Origin: a virus
Taxonomy: Duplodnaviria > Caudoviricetes
Strand: one strand, 5' to 3'
Virus record (IMG/VR): IMGVR_UViG_3300037418_002116
DNA: 64,000 nt
Numbering within the stretch: position 1 is the first letter of the stretch; every line of letters begins with the position of its first letter. A program made the position numbers and the translations under genes. Positions 274 to 29,190 of the stretch are shown one piece after another. The notes under the pieces were generated by a model. That model saw nothing but the letters and a program-made list of their open reading frames with translations. It was not told the origin of the DNA and searched no databases.

Positions 274-443
274 TCTTTGTATCTTTCAATGGCCCGGATA
301 GCAGCACGGGCTTCGTCTTTGAATTCTTTCCAAAGTTCACATTTTGTAGAATCTTCGGAATCGCAAATCAGGCACAATCGCTTGTTGATAGTTTTGCCAG
401 CCGCAAGGCATATCTCACGGCTGACTGATTCCACTTTCGACAT
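270..443 (-). CDS. Small hypothetical protein (57 aa, Cys-containing)
   Basis: Manual translation MSKVESVSREICLAAG...ERYKE with GAGGA upstream; overlaps its neighbours as in a coupled operon. Confidence 0.5.
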   Translation of the reverse strand: MSKVESVSREICLAAGKTINKRLCLICDSEDSTKCELWKEFKDEARAAIRAIERYKE

Positions 444-1206
444 GACGATATTTTTCCTCGATCCGGAGCGGATTGCTGCGAACCATGCGTGTCCGGATGA
501 CCGGTTTCGTAGGATGATGTTCGAAAGGAATAGTCGCCAATTCGTTAATTGTCAACATCCTTTCTTCCGTAATCCGTGAAATTTCGGTGCCAACTCGGAA
601 ACAGGCAGCATGTTCTTCAAAGAAATCTATGCCAAATGCCTTTATCATCTCCAATTTCTCTCTTGTGTTCTTACCCATGAGTTTGGAGTGGCCAAAGAGG
701 TAATGCGCCGCCGATTGTACAGAATTTTTGAAGGCGTCTTGTTGACGCCAAAGGATCATATTGTTAGCTTCATCCATCGTCGGAACGTTGATGATTCTAC
801 AATCGAACGACGGTATCGTTTTGGGTTCCTCTCCAAAATAAGCACAATATGAAAGGGTAAATTTGGCAGCGCACATAGCGGCCAACACAGAAGCGAGTTT
901 CTGAATTTTACCATCGAACATGAATTGGCTTGGGCCTTCACACGGTTCCCAAATCAATGAAATTTCGTCCGATTGCGTGTACCCGAGTAGAGCCTTGGTT
1001 TCGTAGGCCAGATATTCGGTCGTGTCCTGCATACAAGCAGACATGTCACGGTCGAACGGACGCTTCATTCGTCTGGTAAAGCTGGAAAACGAGCGGCCAT
1101 CCAAACGGGCATAGATCGGGAGAGAGGTATCCAGTTTCTGTTCAGTGAAGACCTTTTCGTAGGTCTTCATGCGGTCACCGAAGTTGTCGTGGTGTTTTGT
1201 ACTCAT
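415..1206 (-). CDS. thg1: Thg1-like tRNA(His) guanylyltransferase / 3'-5' polymerase (TLP)
   Basis: Motifs RMKTYE, RLDGRSF, GYTQSDEISL, FDGKIQKL, FDCR and WRQQDAFKNS are typical of the Thg1 family. Confidence 0.9.
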   Translation of the reverse strand: MSTKHHDNFGDRMKTYEKVFTEQKLDTSLPIYARLDGRSFSSFTRRMKRPFDRDMSACMQDTTEYLAYETKALLGYTQSDEISLIWEPCEGPSQFMFDGKIQKLASVLAAMCAAKFTLSYCAYFGEEPKTIPSFDCRIINVPTMDEANNMILWRQQDAFKNSVQSAAHYLFGHSKLMGKNTREKLEMIKAFGIDFFEEHAACFRVGTEISRITEERMLTINELATIPFEHHPTKPVIRTRMVRSNPLRIEEKYRHVESGISQP

Positions 1207-1405
1207 TACTTACATATTTGTAGAAATTATCGATTTCAGTATTGGAATCGCTTGCTGTTAGAATTAGTTGAGAAACCATGCGGCCTTTGAAATATACATC
1301 TTTAGAAAGGTACACATGAATGAATTCAACGCCGTCGAAGTCAGTACCGATGGTTGTATTCGGAAATGAAGCGGCTTTGACTTTACATTCAACGAATGTC
1401 GGCAT
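1175..1405 (-). CDS. Hypothetical protein
   Basis: ORF track 1175..1438; more likely starts at the ATG overlapping the upstream TGA (MPTFVECK...). Confidence 0.5.
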   Translation of the reverse strand: MPTFVECKVKAASFPNTTIGTDFDGVEFIHVYLSKDVYFKGRMVSQLILTASDSNTEIDNFYKYVSNEYKTPRQLR

Positions 1406-2388
1406 CACGTATATGTTCTTTCCCGTTTTGTTGGCCAAAGAGGATAGTTTACGTGTTTGTAATGGCGGTCATAATAATCATCGCCATAATAAGAATGAGC
1501 ATTCTTCCATTCTTTATGGAACATATCATTGATTTCCTCTTGAGTCAAGCTGAAACTATTCTGTTCATCTTTCGTTTTGTGGAAGAAGTATTTTCTATCA
1601 CCATAGGGAAGTTCTGGCAGAGGTTCCGGATTTGGAGTTATAACAGCTTTATCGCTAAGCTTTCGTGCAAATGAATACACACGATAATTTGGATCGTGTG
1701 TAAACTGTGTTACAAACACCAAATATGGTTTTGCGTTTTGCTCAATAGTATAATATGTTACTCTCGTATCTTTATATCCATAAGAGTAATAGTTTTTCTT
1801 TTGTTTGCCATCCGGGTCGCTGTGATCGATTTGTTCGCAGCTTGCCGAAGAAACATAAAATGTTCCGATGTAGCGACCGCTAACCGCTGGCGACTCAACC
1901 ATATCACCGACTTCCAGTTGCTTACGCTCTACCGGATTAAGGAACTTGACGTATCTTTCATCTGATATAGAGATCAGATGATTGATAGCGCCGATACGGC
2001 CCCAAAGATATTGGCCTTGGAATTCGCCCTTCAAAACATCTTGGGTCTGTAACAATTGTGAGAGATTGTGTGCGGTGATTTCAAGTTGGAAGCCACGGGG
2101 ATCATTGATCCTGAACCATTTGTTCGACGTTTCATATCGAGTGACAGAGTGATCGAACTTGAAGCCGGTAATAGGCGTGTTCTCTATCTGGATTGCCGGA
2201 AGGCGTTTGTCCAGTTCCGGGTTTTTTGCATAATAGTAATCTTGGTTCTTGCCGGACCAATGATCGACTGTCTCTTTGCGCTTCTGTGCGGCGGCATCGG
2301 TTCCGTCCGGAACTGCAAACCCGAGAATATCACCACCATCATTCCTACGACCGACATAGAGTGTTTTAGGAAAATTTGTAATTTCCAT
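1405..2388 (-). CDS. Phage hypothetical protein (DPRGFxLEI type)
   Basis: 327-aa ORF with AAGGA SD; no function recognised. Confidence 0.75.
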   Translation of the reverse strand: MEITNFPKTLYVGRRNDGGDILGFAVPDGTDAAAQKRKETVDHWSGKNQDYYYAKNPELDKRLPAIQIENTPITGFKFDHSVTRYETSNKWFRINDPRGFQLEITAHNLSQLLQTQDVLKGEFQGQYLWGRIGAINHLISISDERYVKFLNPVERKQLEVGDMVESPAVSGRYIGTFYVSSASCEQIDHSDPDGKQKKNYYSYGYKDTRVTYYTIEQNAKPYLVFVTQFTHDPNYRVYSFARKLSDKAVITPNPEPLPELPYGDRKYFFHKTKDEQNSFSLTQEEINDMFHKEWKNAHSYYGDDYYDRHYKHVNYPLWPTKRERTYT

Positions 2389-2405
2389 TATTGTCCTTAG
2401 ACATG

Positions 2406-2430
2406 AAAAAGCAGCCCATGGAAGGGCTGC
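2406..2430 (-). terminator. Rho-independent terminator
   Basis: Minus strand GCAGCCC-TTCCAT-GGGCTGC followed by TTTTT. Confidence 0.75.
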
Positions 2431-2443
2431 ATAAAAAATAAAA

Positions 2444-2542
2444 TAGAAGGAGGATTTAAGTGGGGCGTCCTTACCAGACTAGACGACACCGTTCATAGCG
2501 TTGTGAACAGCGGCAGGATTCGAACCATACGTTTCCCCAGAC
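2444..2542 (-). ncRNA. Circularly permuted tRNA-like RNA (order T-arm, closed acceptor hairpin, D-arm)
   Basis: Minus strand TGGGG-AAAC-GTATGG TTCGAAT CCTGC-CGCTGTTCA CAACGCTA TGAACGGTG-TC-GTCT AGTCTGGTAA GGAC-G-CCCCA, with its own promoter and terminator. Confidence 0.75.
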
Positions 2543-2546
2543 TTTA

Positions 2547-2575
2547 TATATACGACATTTTCAAAGAAATGTCAA
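2547..2575 (-). promoter_or_regulatory. Sigma70-type early promoter
   Basis: TTGACA-17 nt-TATATA on the minus strand. Confidence 0.7.
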
Positions 2576-4288
2576 CTAAAATGTTTCAACGGTTGAAAAA
2601 TTTCCTTTTTTCACCACTTTCATAACCCGGTCGAAATTATCCACCATATTTTCACGATGGGAAATGACTATGATATTCGTTTCCTCGCCCATGGAGCGCA
2701 GGATTTCGAATACGTACTTGATACCATCTTCGTCCAAAGAGGAATCACCAACTTCGTCCAGAATCAGCAAATTGGTAGCCATCGAATTTTTCTTTCGGGC
2801 GATCTGCCTCCAAGCGAAAAGAATAGCCAAATCAATACGTTGCTTTTCACCTTCCGAGAAATTTTCATAAGAGAAATCGTCCCGGTAACGGGATTTGATA
2901 GACTCCTGAAAATTTTCGTCCAGATTGAAGCTCACATAAAAATCCATGGCCGAAAGATACTCATTAATAAGCTCATTCATATAAGGAATATATCGCTGCA
3001 CGATAGCGGTTTTTAGACCGTTGTCTTTCAGCATGAGCGCCGCCACGTTTTCGACTTCCCGCTCATTCATGAGTTTCTGTTTCGTGTTGAAATATTCCGT
3101 TACCAGCTTCCGGGCCTTTTTGAGGTTAGCCTTGGTGGTTTCCTCTTGGGTCGCATCCGAGTCATCAACCAAATCAGATTCGAGCTTGGTGATGAATTTG
3201 TTGTTGATGTGGACAGAGGATTGAAGCTCTGAAATCTTGCGGTTGGTCCGGTCGAGAGCATCGATGACCGCACCCTTTTTTTCAAGGTGTTCCGCAATCT
3301 GAATGAGCTTGGCCTTTTCCAGTTTGATCGTCTCTTCTAGAGGCGTATATGAAGTCGTGTGCGTATGGATTTCTTCGGCCTTAAACGTGCCGTCGATGCT
3401 CTGTTTGCATGTCGGGCAGTGATCGTTCTTTTCATAGAAGGCAACCCGGTTTTTATGCTCCCGCACCTTCTGTTCCATGGTCTGGGTGAACGACTCAATC
3501 GTCTTCTGCTTTTCGATAAGCTTGGCAAATTTGGCCTTCTTATCGTCAAGCGTTTCCTTTTCGGTCAAAAGCGTTTCAATCTGCTTTTGACTTACTTCAT
3601 TTTCTCCAAGCAGCCGGTCAATCTCTGAACGGGCACGATCCTTTCTATCCTGCTTCTGTCTATTGATCGATTCAAGAAAATCTTCATTCATCTTGACTTT
3701 CTCTTGTTCGATCTTCAAGAGCCCTTCGACTTCTTTCAGATGCTCTCGATTTTCCTCTTGCTGTTCCTTGAGCAAGGAATTCATGCGAGAGAATACAGAG
3801 ATATCAAGCAGGTCTTCAATGATTTCACGACGCTGTTGCGCCGTCAAACGCATAAACGGAACATAGTTGTTCGATCCGAGTACGACAATCTGTTTGAAAG
3901 AATTGAAGTTCAGGTTCAGCACATTTTCTTCAATGTACTTCTGATAATCCTTTGACGATGCAGACTGATTTATCAGAGTGCCGTCCATATAGATTTCAAA
4001 CACCGCTGGCTTAATACCACGACGGATCATGTAGGTTTTACCCTTCGTCTCGAATTCAATTTCGACCAAAAGGTTTTTGCCATTGATGGAGTTCACCAAT
4101 TGTGGCTTATTGATTTTGCGAAAGTCCTTTCCGAACAACGCAAACGTCAGCGCCGAAATCATGGTCGATTTACCAGCGCCGTTTTGCCCAATGATGAGTG
4201 TTCTCGGATGTGAACTTAGGTCTATTTCGACGGGATCATTACCCGTTGCTAGAAAATTCTTGTAGAGTAGACGTTTAAAAATTACCAA
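2576..4288 (-). CDS. gp46: Recombination endonuclease ATPase subunit (Rad50/SbcC-like)
   Basis: Walker A GQNGAGKST, CPTC zinc hook, FSEGEKQR signature, LLILDE Walker B. Confidence 0.95.
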   Translation of the reverse strand: MVIFKRLLYKNFLATGNDPVEIDLSSHPRTLIIGQNGAGKSTMISALTFALFGKDFRKINKPQLVNSINGKNLLVEIEFETKGKTYMIRRGIKPAVFEIYMDGTLINQSASSKDYQKYIEENVLNLNFNSFKQIVVLGSNNYVPFMRLTAQQRREIIEDLLDISVFSRMNSLLKEQQEENREHLKEVEGLLKIEQEKVKMNEDFLESINRQKQDRKDRARSEIDRLLGENEVSQKQIETLLTEKETLDDKKAKFAKLIEKQKTIESFTQTMEQKVREHKNRVAFYEKNDHCPTCKQSIDGTFKAEEIHTHTTSYTPLEETIKLEKAKLIQIAEHLEKKGAVIDALDRTNRKISELQSSVHINNKFITKLESDLVDDSDATQEETTKANLKKARKLVTEYFNTKQKLMNEREVENVAALMLKDNGLKTAIVQRYIPYMNELINEYLSAMDFYVSFNLDENFQESIKSRYRDDFSYENFSEGEKQRIDLAILFAWRQIARKKNSMATNLLILDEVGDSSLDEDGIKYVFEILRSMGEETNIIVISHRENMVDNFDRVMKVVKKGNFSTVETF

Positions 4289-4297
4289 ATACTAGTC

Positions 4298-4579
4298 CTA
4301 AGCGTGTTCTTCAATCCATGTCATGTAATAGTTTCGCAATTCGTTGTACAAACCAGCATAATGTTCTGGAAAAGGCATTTCTGGAAATATTCTATGAACG
4401 AGACACAAGACAACCCATGACGGATTATCCATCAATAGTTCATAGATATGTATTCTTGCGTTTTCATCTGTCACAAGAGATTCGAATAGAGGATGGAGTT
4501 TCCAAGTTCTTGGATTTGAGTGGTATTTTACATCCTTATGAATCTTGTCGAGGACAGATTTGTATTCTTCAAATGTCAT
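4298..4579 (-). CDS. Hypothetical protein between gp47 and gp46
   Basis: 93-aa ORF overlapping the gp47 stop. Confidence 0.65.
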   Translation of the reverse strand: MTFEEYKSVLDKIHKDVKYHSNPRTWKLHPLFESLVTDENARIHIYELLMDNPSWVVLCLVHRIFPEMPFPEHYAGLYNELRNYYMTWIEEHA

Positions 4580-5634
4580 AATTCAAGCTCATTTGCTTTT
4601 TGATACAGATTCGTGAACAGACCCAAAAGCTTATCCTTTCGGACGGTCAGCTTTTGATCCGAGTTCTGAATGTATCGGGTAATAAAGGTAAGAGTATCTT
4701 CGATTTCGAAGTTGCCTTCTTCCTGACTGGTTTCAGCCCGGAATAAAGGTTCTTCTACCACTATGACGTTGGCGGCGTTGGTCTTGTTCAGCCTGTCCAG
4801 ATACTTTTCGAAGTTAACTGGATTAGTCTTGTTCTTGACCACAACTTTGATGTAGGAATTGTCGATAACAGATGTATCGAGTTCCTGTTCGCCCATTGAG
4901 TCATCATAGCTCAATTTCTTGAACAGCTTATACGGATTTTCGATAAAGTCAATAGTCAATGTTTCTGTATCGAGAACATGGAAGCCTTTGGCCACGTCGT
5001 GATCGGCCCACGTCATTTCATATGGCGTTCCAAGGTACATGATGCCGTTGGAATACGATTTGAAATGAAAATGGCCAGAGAACACAGACAGATAGGCATC
5101 GAAAATCGAACGGTTCAAGCCATGTTCAGCCGGACGGCCACGCAACATTTCATAACCTTGAATTTCAAGGTGACCCATGATGATTTTGGCATGAGCTTGT
5201 TCGATCATTTCCATGGTGAGCGCCTGATTTTCAGGAGTAATCCATGGAATCATCAGAATTTTTAGATCACCAAACGTTTCATAAGTCGGCTCGGAATAGA
5301 TCGTGAAATTGTAGTCCTTCAAAAGCAGCATTGGCGAATTGACGGCCAACGTATTCCGGAAAAACGAAGAGTGGTTTCCGAGAATGATGCGAAGGTCGAT
5401 GTCCCGCTCTGCGATCTTGTCGAAATACATTTCCCGTGTCATTTGGAGCGTCTGGAAATTGACGTATTTCCGACGATCAAACGTGTCACCAAGATCAATC
5501 ACGGTTTTGATACCGTGATTGTCCAGATATGGAAAAAAGATATCGTCATAGAACTTTTTGTGATAATTCAGAAGCACCAAGGAATCATTGCGGACGCCGA
5601 AGTGCTGGTCTGTGATTAAAGCGATCTTACTCAT
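4576..5634 (-). CDS. gp47: Recombination endonuclease nuclease subunit (Mre11/SbcD-like)
   Basis: Metallophosphoesterase motifs DQHFG, DLGDTFD, GNH and SGHFH. Confidence 0.95.
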   Translation of the reverse strand: MSKIALITDQHFGVRNDSLVLLNYHKKFYDDIFFPYLDNHGIKTVIDLGDTFDRRKYVNFQTLQMTREMYFDKIAERDIDLRIILGNHSSFFRNTLAVNSPMLLLKDYNFTIYSEPTYETFGDLKILMIPWITPENQALTMEMIEQAHAKIIMGHLEIQGYEMLRGRPAEHGLNRSIFDAYLSVFSGHFHFKSYSNGIMYLGTPYEMTWADHDVAKGFHVLDTETLTIDFIENPYKLFKKLSYDDSMGEQELDTSVIDNSYIKVVVKNKTNPVNFEKYLDRLNKTNAANVIVVEEPLFRAETSQEEGNFEIEDTLTFITRYIQNSDQKLTVRKDKLLGLFTNLYQKANELEL

Positions 5635-10210: not shown

Positions 10211-10287
10211 CGGCGGTTCGTACAGCGGCCTAGTACCCCCTGCTCATAACAGGTGCAACGCCGGTTCGAATCCGGCACCGCCAACCA
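10211..10287 (+). tRNA. tRNA with CAU anticodon (fMet-like acceptor end; Met versus Ile2 identity uncertain)
   Basis: CGGCGGT/ACCGCCA with a C1xA72 mismatch, GTAC/GTAC D-stem, CCCTG-CTCATAA-CAGGT, GCCGG-TTCGAAT-CCGGC, ACCA. Confidence 0.88.
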
Positions 10288-10289
10288 AA

Positions 10290-10385
10290 TTCCTCCGTTA
10301 CGGGCATGTACCGTCACTTGGAGTCCCCTATATTTCGCCGGTCGGATAGGGCACCGTTCAATTCGGGAAACGGAGGAGTCGACCA
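10290..10385 (+). ncRNA. tRNA-cluster structured RNA with a T-loop and CCA end
   Basis: TCCTCCGTT/AACGGAGGA closing stem, ACGG/CCGT and CCCTAT/ATAGGG arms, CCG-TTCAATT-CGG T-arm, 3' GTCGACCA. Confidence 0.65.
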
Positions 10386-24008: not shown

Positions 24009-24569
24009 TTAGATATCAGTACCGCCAGCGAAGCCAGTTGTGCTTTGATCACCAGAGGTCCAGTAGTCAACGGAGAAGGAAACTGGATAGCTGATAACGT
24101 CATCCTGTCCCCAATCCATGCCGATAGAACCGACAGAAATAGGCCAAATACCGTTGAACTTGTATTCACGAAGAACGTTGCCGTTCTGTGAGTAAAGAGT
24201 TACGTCGGCAATCGACTTGTAGAGCGACTGTTCAGAAGTTGGGAGTCTTCTAATGTTGCCAATTGGTGAGTTGATTGAGTTTACCCATTCTTCCATTGCA
24301 TTACGGATCAAGTGATCTTCATCACCAATGATAGTAACTTCCCAATCGGAATAGTTCTGGGTTACACCAGCAACTTTGATCGCACGGCCAAAATAAGAAA
24401 CCGAAATTGGGTTCGTATCTTTCTGTGGAACGTTTGTCGCACGGCAGAGGAATGGCAGAACTGAGTCAGCCTGTCCGTTTACCGGGTTGGTGATTTTCAC
24501 CTGAAAAAGGTTCGTTCTTGCGCCACCGTAACGAAGAGCCGAACGAAATGAATTGATGTTAAAAGCCAT
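24009..24569 (-). CDS. gp19: Tail tube protein
   Basis: GGARTNLFQV, YFGRAIKVAG, YKFNGIWP; TATAAATA at 24602-24609. Confidence 0.95.
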   Translation of the reverse strand: MAFNINSFRSALRYGGARTNLFQVKITNPVNGQADSVLPFLCRATNVPQKDTNPISVSYFGRAIKVAGVTQNYSDWEVTIIGDEDHLIRNAMEEWVNSINSPIGNIRRLPTSEQSLYKSIADVTLYSQNGNVLREYKFNGIWPISVGSIGMDWGQDDVISYPVSFSVDYWTSGDQSTTGFAGGTDI

Positions 24570-28824: not shown

Positions 28825-28869
28825 TTTTTCTGCTTGACTCTTAAAAGCGAATAGATTATACATATACTC

Positions 28870-29190
28870 GTTGTGATGAAGACGACTGAAAGGTATTCAG
28901 GACTCGGGGGCGGAACCCGACTAGTCCACCACAACCAGATAGAGGGACGAAAGCCCGGCCAATAACACGGCGTCGTATGATGGCTGGCGTTCTATCTGGT
29001 TATGATGGGCTAGAAACAGGATCGACTGGTACGTAATAGGAAGTTGGAGCAACCGGCATTGTACCGCCGTTATCGGGCTAAACACAATAAGAGACAACGA
29101 TAACTTCGTTCCTCTGGCAATCGCTGCCTAATCAGCAGTAGCCAATGAGTTTTGGCGGTTGAACTTGGAAACAGAATCAACCGCCGCTTC
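28870..29190 (+). ncRNA. ssrA: Circularly permuted (two-piece) tmRNA
   Basis: Acceptor piece ends CTAGTCCACCA (28931); coding piece starts GGGCTAGAAACAGGATCGAC (29007); G3-U70 pair; tag frame DNDNFVPLAIAA* at 29093-29131; promoter TTGACT-17-TATACA at 28834. Confidence 0.9.

Follow-up and report, generated by a model that had tools for sequence, protein, structure and literature searches.

Genes for circularly permuted tRNAs, as in Cyanidioschyzon merolae and Thermofilum pendens, give transcripts in which a bulge-helix-bulge serves for circularisation, and the products are decoding tRNAs. A tRNA-like RNA associated with Band-7 proteins in RtcB repair systems was reportedly described by Burroughs and Aravind in 2016. 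The closest described relatives in shape of the element studied here are the YrlA Y RNAs, which carry the Ro-binding motif GNCGAAN0-1G (PMC4201824). For the YrlA RNA of M. smegmatis it was found that RNase P cuts the acceptor loop, which is longer in this cleavable subtype, and that CCA is added in vivo, which results in a two-piece RNA (Chen et al. 2014, PMC4201824). So far, tRNA mimics of the Y RNA type have been sought and interpreted solely as partners of Ro60. In this paper we analyse an element of this shape at positions 2461 to 2539 on the minus strand of a 64-kb stretch of phage DNA (64,000 nucleotides, nt; IMG/VR record IMGVR_UViG_3300037418_002116), and this whole stretch is called the window in the following. 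The element is best explained as the gene for a small structured, non-decoding RNA with a tRNA-Glu-like body, which belongs to the class of the YrlA tRNA mimics and does without Ro60. Its importance lies in the fact that a bare tRNA-like module seems to be kept by selection in a T4-like phage lineage without a Ro60-type protein.

The module consists of the following parts, given in the order in which the minus strand is read.

2461..2539, minus strand: the complete circularly permuted tRNA-like module, 79 nt, based on minimum free energy (MFE) fold, covariation and re-permutation
2539-2535, minus strand: 3' strand of the anticodon stem, TGGGG
2534-2531, minus strand: variable loop of 4 nt, AAAC
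2530-2513, minus strand: T-arm with one bulged base and the loop TTCGAAT
2512-2505, minus strand: 3' strand of the acceptor helix
2495..2504, minus strand: acceptor loop, ACAACGCTAT
2494-2487, minus strand: 5' strand of the acceptor helix
2486-2485, minus strand: U8 and C9
2484-2467, minus strand: D-arm of the Glu type
2466, minus strand: G26
2465-2461, minus strand: 5' strand of the anticodon stem, CCCCA

An initial annotation of this site had listed a promoter, TGGGG, AAAC, a T-arm, an acceptor hairpin, a D-arm, CCCCA and a terminator, and all of them are found on the minus strand where it had placed them. Two details have to be modified. The T-arm is present, but its stem contains one bulged base (6 nt versus 5), and the acceptor helix, described with 9 base pairs (bp), exists with a conserved part of 8 bp and a ninth A-U pair that is optional. 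The MFE fold of the 81-nt core is exactly the four-way junction described before and the tRNA elbow as well as the nucleotides for the tertiary contacts between D- and T-arm are intact. The folding energy of the core is not above chance (z = -0.43). With such an ordinary folding energy thermodynamics proves nothing, and the case therefore rests on conservation.

Relatives of the locus were reached via gp46 and via the protein ORF327 (327 amino acids, aa), which is encoded by the open reading frame (ORF) behind the element. These relatives are a phage genome that is 85% complete (G001, with the loci L001 and L002), a genome that is 100% complete (G002, locus L003) and one contig from ENA (L161). 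Including the window this gives six copies of the module in four genomes, with two tandem copies each in L001 and L161. In the alignment of the six copies 96.2% of the cells are paired, and 11 out of 22 pairs are changed on both sides (20 cells). Controls in which the 3' partners were slid by 1-3 columns gave only 0-3 double-changed pairs, and none of 500 shuffles reached the observed level. Co-variation is seen in each of the helices of anticodon stem, T-stem and acceptor, and the D-arm is invariant. In the acceptor helix 8 bp are conserved and a G-U pair recurs solely at the fifth position from the top. The helix is topped by a G:C pair which is invariant in the six copies; the G(-1):C73-type pair that had been noted earlier is thus real. 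The comparison with related phages, in which the earlier prediction held up, confirms on comparative grounds that the element represents a stand-alone circularly permuted tRNA-shaped RNA whose fold appears to be kept by selection.

In its natural order the site receives no call from ARAGORN or from the Rfam tRNA model, and it lacks the uninterrupted cloverleaf of a canonical tRNA, in which the anticodon loop has 7 nt and the acceptor ends are free. For the re-permutation a copy was cut in the acceptor loop and its two ends were joined by an artificial 7-nt anticodon loop. After this treatment in silico all four copies tested are recognised as tRNA by ARAGORN. Of the searches proposed with the initial annotation, those with YrlA and tRNA models gave no match to the element as it is, and a tRNA call was obtained once the parts had been re-permuted. 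Among 882 phage tRNAs, a set which is enriched for tRNA-Glu by the way it was collected, the D-arm, the 4-nt variable loop and the T-arm come closest to tRNA-Glu/Gln. A covariance model (R1) built from the clade of the window and its relatives (window clade) finds the window element with 102 bits (E 4e-26).

To look for similar modules, IMG/VR was scanned for a T-loop that is followed by this D-arm 24-40 nt later. Besides tandem tRNAs, more than 20 further modules of the same permuted layout were found, which match the window-clade model with E-values from 1e-14 to 1e-6. In L055, L084 and L127 the module is located beside a TROVE (Ro60) gene, and these Rsr-adjacent phage modules match the model at E 1e-10 to 1e-7. 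The motif GNCGAAN0-1G is present upstream of the jumbo-phage modules L036 and L134. Some of the modules from the scan are typical Y RNAs of the YrlA type. Several phages without TROVE have a DUF2828/DUF7788 protein instead, in two of them directly next to the module, and DUF2828/DUF7788 is taken to be a Ro60-like family. Many modules lie inside phage tRNA arrays, in the gap between two canonical tRNAs, and in two complete phages with modules of this kind (G024, G026) neither TROVE nor DUF2828 nor DUF7788 was found. The Rfam YrlA model (RF02553, gathering score 69 bits) misses the modules next to TROVE in L055, L084, L127 and L036, with a best score of 38.6 bits (L055, E 5e-7; L036 reaches 27.5 bits, E 1e-3). 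Phage Y RNAs are therefore systematically unannotated.

Two observations on these modules should be mentioned separately. In L105 (1493-4595) a full EF-Tu homolog with its three EF-Tu domains (E 5e-65) is encoded by the side of a DUF2828/DUF7788 Ro-like protein, a permuted module and a tRNA-His. The cultured, rhizobial Sinorhizobium phage Phosso (PV764938.1, 469 kb) contains two unannotated modules at 24219-24297 and 24452-24534, in a gap of 645 nt after a helicase gene, and more modules near 420-428 kb. Phosso could be a laboratory system.

The window module shows the order of parts known from the tRNA-like domain of YrlA, namely variable loop, T-arm, a closed acceptor-like stem-loop and D-arm, with the ends at the anticodon stem. 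The resemblance to YrlA pointed out in the initial annotation is right as to the shape, that is, for the order of parts, the fold and the covariation. A Ro60-binding helix of 5' and 3' end with GNCGAAN0-1G is absent from the window clade. The promoter leaves a leader of at most about 6 nt, therefore there is no room for the 5' strand of such a helix. A search with RF02553 on positions 2350-2650 resulted in zero rows up to E 10, and Pfam TROVE, a phage-TROVE profile and DUF2828/DUF7788 gave no match in the six frames of the 64-kb window or in G001 and G002. The earlier statement that neither a Ro-binding stem nor Rsr is visible thus holds for the window, for the 85% complete G001 and for the 100% complete G002. 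In total, three of four testable features of YrlA are missing, and the element was filed as an RNA that works like the tRNA-like domain of YrlA but is not a YrlA Y RNA.

The acceptor loop contains conserved residues at both of its sides. Directly 3' of the helix all six copies have A-C-C/A-A, which is ACCA in four of them and ACAA in the window and one other copy, and directly 5' of the invariant G at the start of the 5' strand all six have U-A-U. In the wider module family two loop types can be distinguished, a tight tetraloop (GNRA, UNCG) versus a long loop that starts with N-CCA and often ends with UAU in front of the G. Such loops, with NCCA at the start and UAU before G at the end, recur in modules unrelated to the window clade. 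A discriminator plus CCA and a U at position -1 are the look of an RNase P substrate. By analogy these marks suggest an RNase P cut between U2495 and G2494 with a CCA-type end. That the RNA is uncleavable, which the initial annotation had suggested for a decoy, is doubtful, because the conserved A-C-C/A-A and U-A-U are marks of a substrate of the RNase P/CCA type.

From these data the following series of steps can be proposed. An early-type promoter would give rise to a separate RNA of ~135 nt that extends to the terminator in the window, or to the leader of the ORF327/Thg1-like operon in the relatives, as the conserved sequence suggests. This RNA would fold into the L-shape of a tRNA, which is supported by the covariation. 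By analogy to the YrlA RNA of M. smegmatis, host RNase P may then cut the acceptor loop before the invariant G, and the 3' side may be trimmed or repaired to ACCA. The product would be a two-piece, anticodon-less tRNA look-alike that is held together by the 8-bp and the 5-bp helices. To judge from the gene neighbourhood, it could offer ORF327, perhaps also the Thg1-like enzyme, a platform or substrate with the shape of a tRNA, in parallel to YrlA, which serves Ro60 in the rsr-rtcBA repair operon. We give about an even chance to the explanation that the element encodes a tRNA mimic which is independent of Ro60 and is probably processed by RNase P to a two-piece CCA-ended RNA. In this explanation the RNA would be the platform or a substrate within a phage cassette for tRNA repair or counter-defence, with ORF327 as the likeliest partner. 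A more specific version seems doubtful to us, namely that the RNase P-cut, CCA-ended tRNA-Glu look-alike and ORF327 form a Ro-independent particle which is a platform for tRNA repair or replacement, or for anticodon-independent charging, when the phage infects hosts which attack tRNAs. Should the module function by itself or together with a new partner, tRNA genes and repair enzymes would be only a part of the phage toolkit in the tRNA-centred arms race with bacterial defences.

The window comes from a T4-like phage, and its minus strand carries gp47, gp46, UvsW and a gp55-type sigma factor, and the source DNA occurs in rhizosphere and soil metagenomes. After the stop codon of gp46 the minus strand reads promoter, 79-nt module, 30-nt tail, terminator, ribosome-binding site, the 327-aa ORF, the 87-aa ORF and the Thg1-like gene.

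4576-5634, minus strand: gp47 (Mre11-like)
2576-4288, minus strand: gp46 (Rad50-like)
2547..2575, minus strand: sigma-70-type promoter, with -35 TTGACA at 2575-2570, a 17-nt spacer and -10 TATATA at 2552-2547
2404..2460, minus strand: 3' tail and intrinsic terminator, a hairpin at 2430-2411 followed by a U run, from terminator scan and fold
1405..2388, minus strand: ORF327, 327 aa, beta-rich, matching PHROGs of unknown function only
1175..1438, minus strand: ORF87, 87 aa, function unknown, between ORF327 and the Thg1-like gene
415..1206, minus strand: Thg1-like protein of the 3'-5' nucleotidyl transferase family, encoded at the end of the cassette

With blastn and megablast no relative of the module RNA was found in 50,697 phage records, and the sole nucleotide match in these records is 82 bp of gp46 in the cultured, T4-like Ochrobactrum phage vB_OspM_OC. 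In this phage a peptide deformylase gene directly follows gp46, and the RNA, ORF327 and the Thg1-like gene are all absent. A clade-specific pattern search returned two already known viral contigs only, and none of the JGI metagenome contigs.

The promoter begins one base past the stop codon of gp46 and ends 7 nt ahead of the first stem, and from its position the transcript should start ~2-5 nt ahead of this stem. A simple promoter pattern scan did not list it because its -10 ends in A. The pattern TTGAC(A/T)-17-TATATA precedes the element also in L001, L003 and L161, with a different spacer sequence in L003. Behind the module the tail opens with CUUAAAU followed by a pyrimidine-rich stretch, and only the first CU(N)A is conserved. 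An anti-Shine-Dalgarno-like tail, AUCCUCCUU (2444-2460, minus strand), had been flagged earlier and was rejected as not conserved in the relatives. L001, L003 and L161 have no terminator, and their last module ends 26-30 nt ahead of the start codon. In L003 (4748-4942) ~190 nt of GC-rich, apparently structured RNA lie between promoter and module, and the 5' end of this part is able to pair with the tail 3' of the module. The 190-nt part has no Rfam match, and nothing similar was found among the loci compared. In public rhizosphere RNA libraries three or four contigs of 151 nt lie over ORF327, ORF87 and the terminator, and the module is not covered by any of them. One metatranscriptome contig corresponds to 2319-2469 and crosses the terminator, which is weak evidence.

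The last gene of the cassette is predicted to encode a complete Thg1-like domain (PF04446, E 9e-28, 97 bits, positions 2-130 of 130; phrog_4717, E 6e-72). ORF327 directly follows the RNA in L001, L003 and L161, and Thg1-like orthologs follow ORF327 in L001 and L003. In total, the order promoter, RNA, ORF327, small ORF and Thg1 is kept in four genomes, though the gene upstream differs in L001, and the relatives have ORFs of 75-76 aa at the place of ORF87. The initial annotation had put the RNA at the head of an operon for the Thg1-like enzyme. The RNA does belong to this cassette, but the link is looser than assumed, as can be seen from the complete, more distant phage G029, whose gp46 is 65% identical. 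In G029 a Thg1-like ortholog (52% identity) is located ~540 nt behind gp46, and neither the RNA nor ORF327 is present. The small ORFs at the corresponding place in G029 show no similarity to ORF87. As the RNA and ORF327 are both absent where the Thg1-like gene stays, they were gained or lost as a pair, and the Thg1-like gene does not need them. ORF327 is the likeliest candidate for a protein partner of the RNA.

ORF327 itself has no match in Pfam, NCBIfam or the named PHROGs. Its structure was predicted by AlphaFold with a pLDDT of 81. Foldseek searches against the PDB gave only E > 0.1, and VIA-align found small beta-barrels with Z <= 6.1, which is below the noise level of the tool. The Atlas score was 0.76. 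Distant homologs of ORF327 are found among genes for RNA and tRNA repair, with neighbours such as Thg1 and an AAA_33 kinase (L169, L170), a metallophosphatase (L169) and RtcB (L172/L173). In L162 (574-4035) the homolog directly follows a Band_7 gene and a bona fide glutamyl-tRNA synthetase (GluRS; TIGR00464, 473 bits), and in L164 (689-4032) it lies near the gene for a GluRS catalytic domain of 305 aa, from which the anticodon-binding domain is missing. Given the tRNA-Glu-like body without an anticodon, these GluRS neighbours are suggestive. In the window clade a GluRS gene was looked for and none was found. A further homolog is located inside a tRNA array together with an RF-1-domain gene (L165, 933-7854). 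The tRNAs of this array include the anticodons UUA and CUA ('Stop' and 'Pyl' in ARAGORN), which in combination with the RF-1-domain gene hints at stop-codon recoding.

Several points weigh against a Ro-independent, RNase P-matured mimic with ORF327 as its partner. The loop of the window copy is ACAA and not ACCA, and with a helix of 8 bp the RNase P site is a prediction. The Ro60 search of this phage covered the 64-kb window, and the rest of its genome lies outside. Beyond the beta-barrel matches at noise level, the fold of ORF327 has nothing that points to RNA binding. Eight distant ORF327 homologs have no module within 3-4 kb. Therefore the link between the RNA and ORF327 rests on one clade and could be due to shared descent. 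In Phosso the modules are 350 kb away from its ORF327 homolog. Finally, the contigs from the RNA libraries are single and short and possibly derive from DNA, and ends and strand are not readable from them.

Another explanation is a pure decoy or sponge, i.e. a sealed, anticodon-less tRNA shape which titrates a tRNA-directed defence nuclease, a toxin or a tRNA-binding enzyme of the host and needs no phage partner. The elbow with its intact D/T tertiary nucleotides, the early-type promoter and the similar modules in the tRNA arrays of the complete phages G024 and G026, which lack any Ro-type gene, would all be in line with this idea, and in L001 and L161 the dose would be higher owing to the second, tandem copy. 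However, known anticodon nucleases read the anticodon loop, and this loop is absent from the module. Moreover, if the RNA stayed sealed, there would be no explanation for the conservation of ACCA/ACAA, of UAU and of the G:C pair at the top of the helix, nor for the joint gain and loss of the RNA with ORF327. We consider the decoy rather unlikely, though not far-fetched.

It is quite unlikely, in our opinion, that the module is a cis-acting leader of the ORF327/Thg1-like mRNA, either as a feedback operator for one of the tRNA-binding proteins of the operon or by recruiting RNase P to process and stabilise the message. In favour of this reading, L001, L003 and L161 have no terminator and their last module ends at a distance of 26-30 nt from the start codon, one RNA-library contig bridges the terminator of the window, and joint gain and loss with the gene is what one expects of a cis element. 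Against it, a strong terminator separates the RNA from the ORF in the window, modules of this type in other places are genes of their own, within tRNA arrays or next to Ro60, and a locus has either one module or two, with the extra 190-nt 5' part in L003.

An ordinary Y RNA, which would use the Ro60 (Rsr) of the host or one encoded in the phage genome beyond the window, is very improbable: the tRNA-like domain has a layout homologous to that of the Rsr-adjacent phage modules and the search for Ro60 in this phage covered the 64-kb window only, but at most ~6 nt before the first stem make a Ro-binding helix impossible, GNCGAAN0-1G and any RF02553 match are absent, and the 100% complete relative G002 has neither TROVE nor DUF2828. 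Hardly credible, too, is a permuted tRNA gene, whose transcript would be circularised and recut to a decoding tRNA, or else a decayed remnant of tRNA genes in tandem. As in the permuted tRNA genes of algae and archaea, the 3' half is read before the 5' half, the tail start CU(N)A resembles the start of an anticodon loop, and the acceptor loop resembles a discriminator-CCA plus short spacer as expected from tandem tRNA genes. However, the leader of at most ~6 nt is too short for a bulge-helix-bulge and, apart from CU(N)A, the flanks show no conservation, so the precursor considered in the initial annotation, which is ligated and then cut to a tRNA, could not form a helix of the splicing type. 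The splicing endonuclease that would be required is not known from bacteria. The remnant is contradicted by the compensatory changes in three helices. The reading as an integration site (attP) was rejected, as the phage is a lytic T4-type phage and both halves of the module co-vary.

Two other sites in the window have some similarity to permuted RNAs. At 28830-29185 (plus strand) there is a gene for a permuted (two-piece) transfer-messenger RNA (tmRNA), with 126 bits for the Rfam model alpha_tmRNA and 109 bits for tmRNA_permuted. It fits an alphaproteobacterial host and a phage with more than one permuted tRNA-related RNA. A weak match of the module model (22.8 bits) at 10245-10362 (plus strand) extends across the T-arm of a tRNA-Met (10211-10287) and the RNA after it (10290-10385), and is probably an artefact of the two neighbouring tRNAs.

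Comparing the element with the known systems, the permuted tRNA genes of C. merolae and T. pendens share with it that the 3' half is encoded first and that the intervening piece lies at the acceptor end. The window RNA differs in that it encodes no anticodon loop and cannot form a bulge-helix-bulge. With two-piece tmRNA it has the permuted order around the acceptor stem in common, and also in tmRNA RNase P and 3' trimming result in two paired pieces with a CCA end. However, the window RNA lacks the tag reading frame, the pseudoknots and G3:U70, there is no tmRNA call at the site, and it has a full D-arm, which tmRNA does not have. The Band-7-associated tRNA-like RNA is reportedly also a tRNA mimic with a non-Ro protein in an RNA-repair setting, and the ORF327 homolog in L162 adjoins Band_7. 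ORF327 has no Pfam match, therefore it is not recognised as a member of such a partner family.

The shape as such is already known (YrlA, 2014). In the literature searched we found neither a bare module with its own promoter nor a case without any Ro-type protein in a complete relative, and no 8-bp helix with ACCA/UAU marks and no coupling to ORF327 and a Thg1-like gene. In comparison to the YrlA RNA of M. smegmatis, the window clade has matching marks, A-C-C/A-A where the loop leaves the helix and U where it returns to it, but the helix has 8 bp instead of 7, the partner is not Ro60 and cleavage is only predicted. With the YrlA RNAs in general (RF02553; PMC4201824) the element shares the order of parts, the ends at the position of the anticodon stem, the conserved tRNA tertiary nucleotides, the frequent tandem copies and the linkage to RNA-repair genes. 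The difference is that the window RNA is essentially a bare tRNA-like domain which starts at its own promoter, and should this module act by itself or together with a new partner, the part of Y RNAs that has the shape of a tRNA would count as a functional unit of its own.
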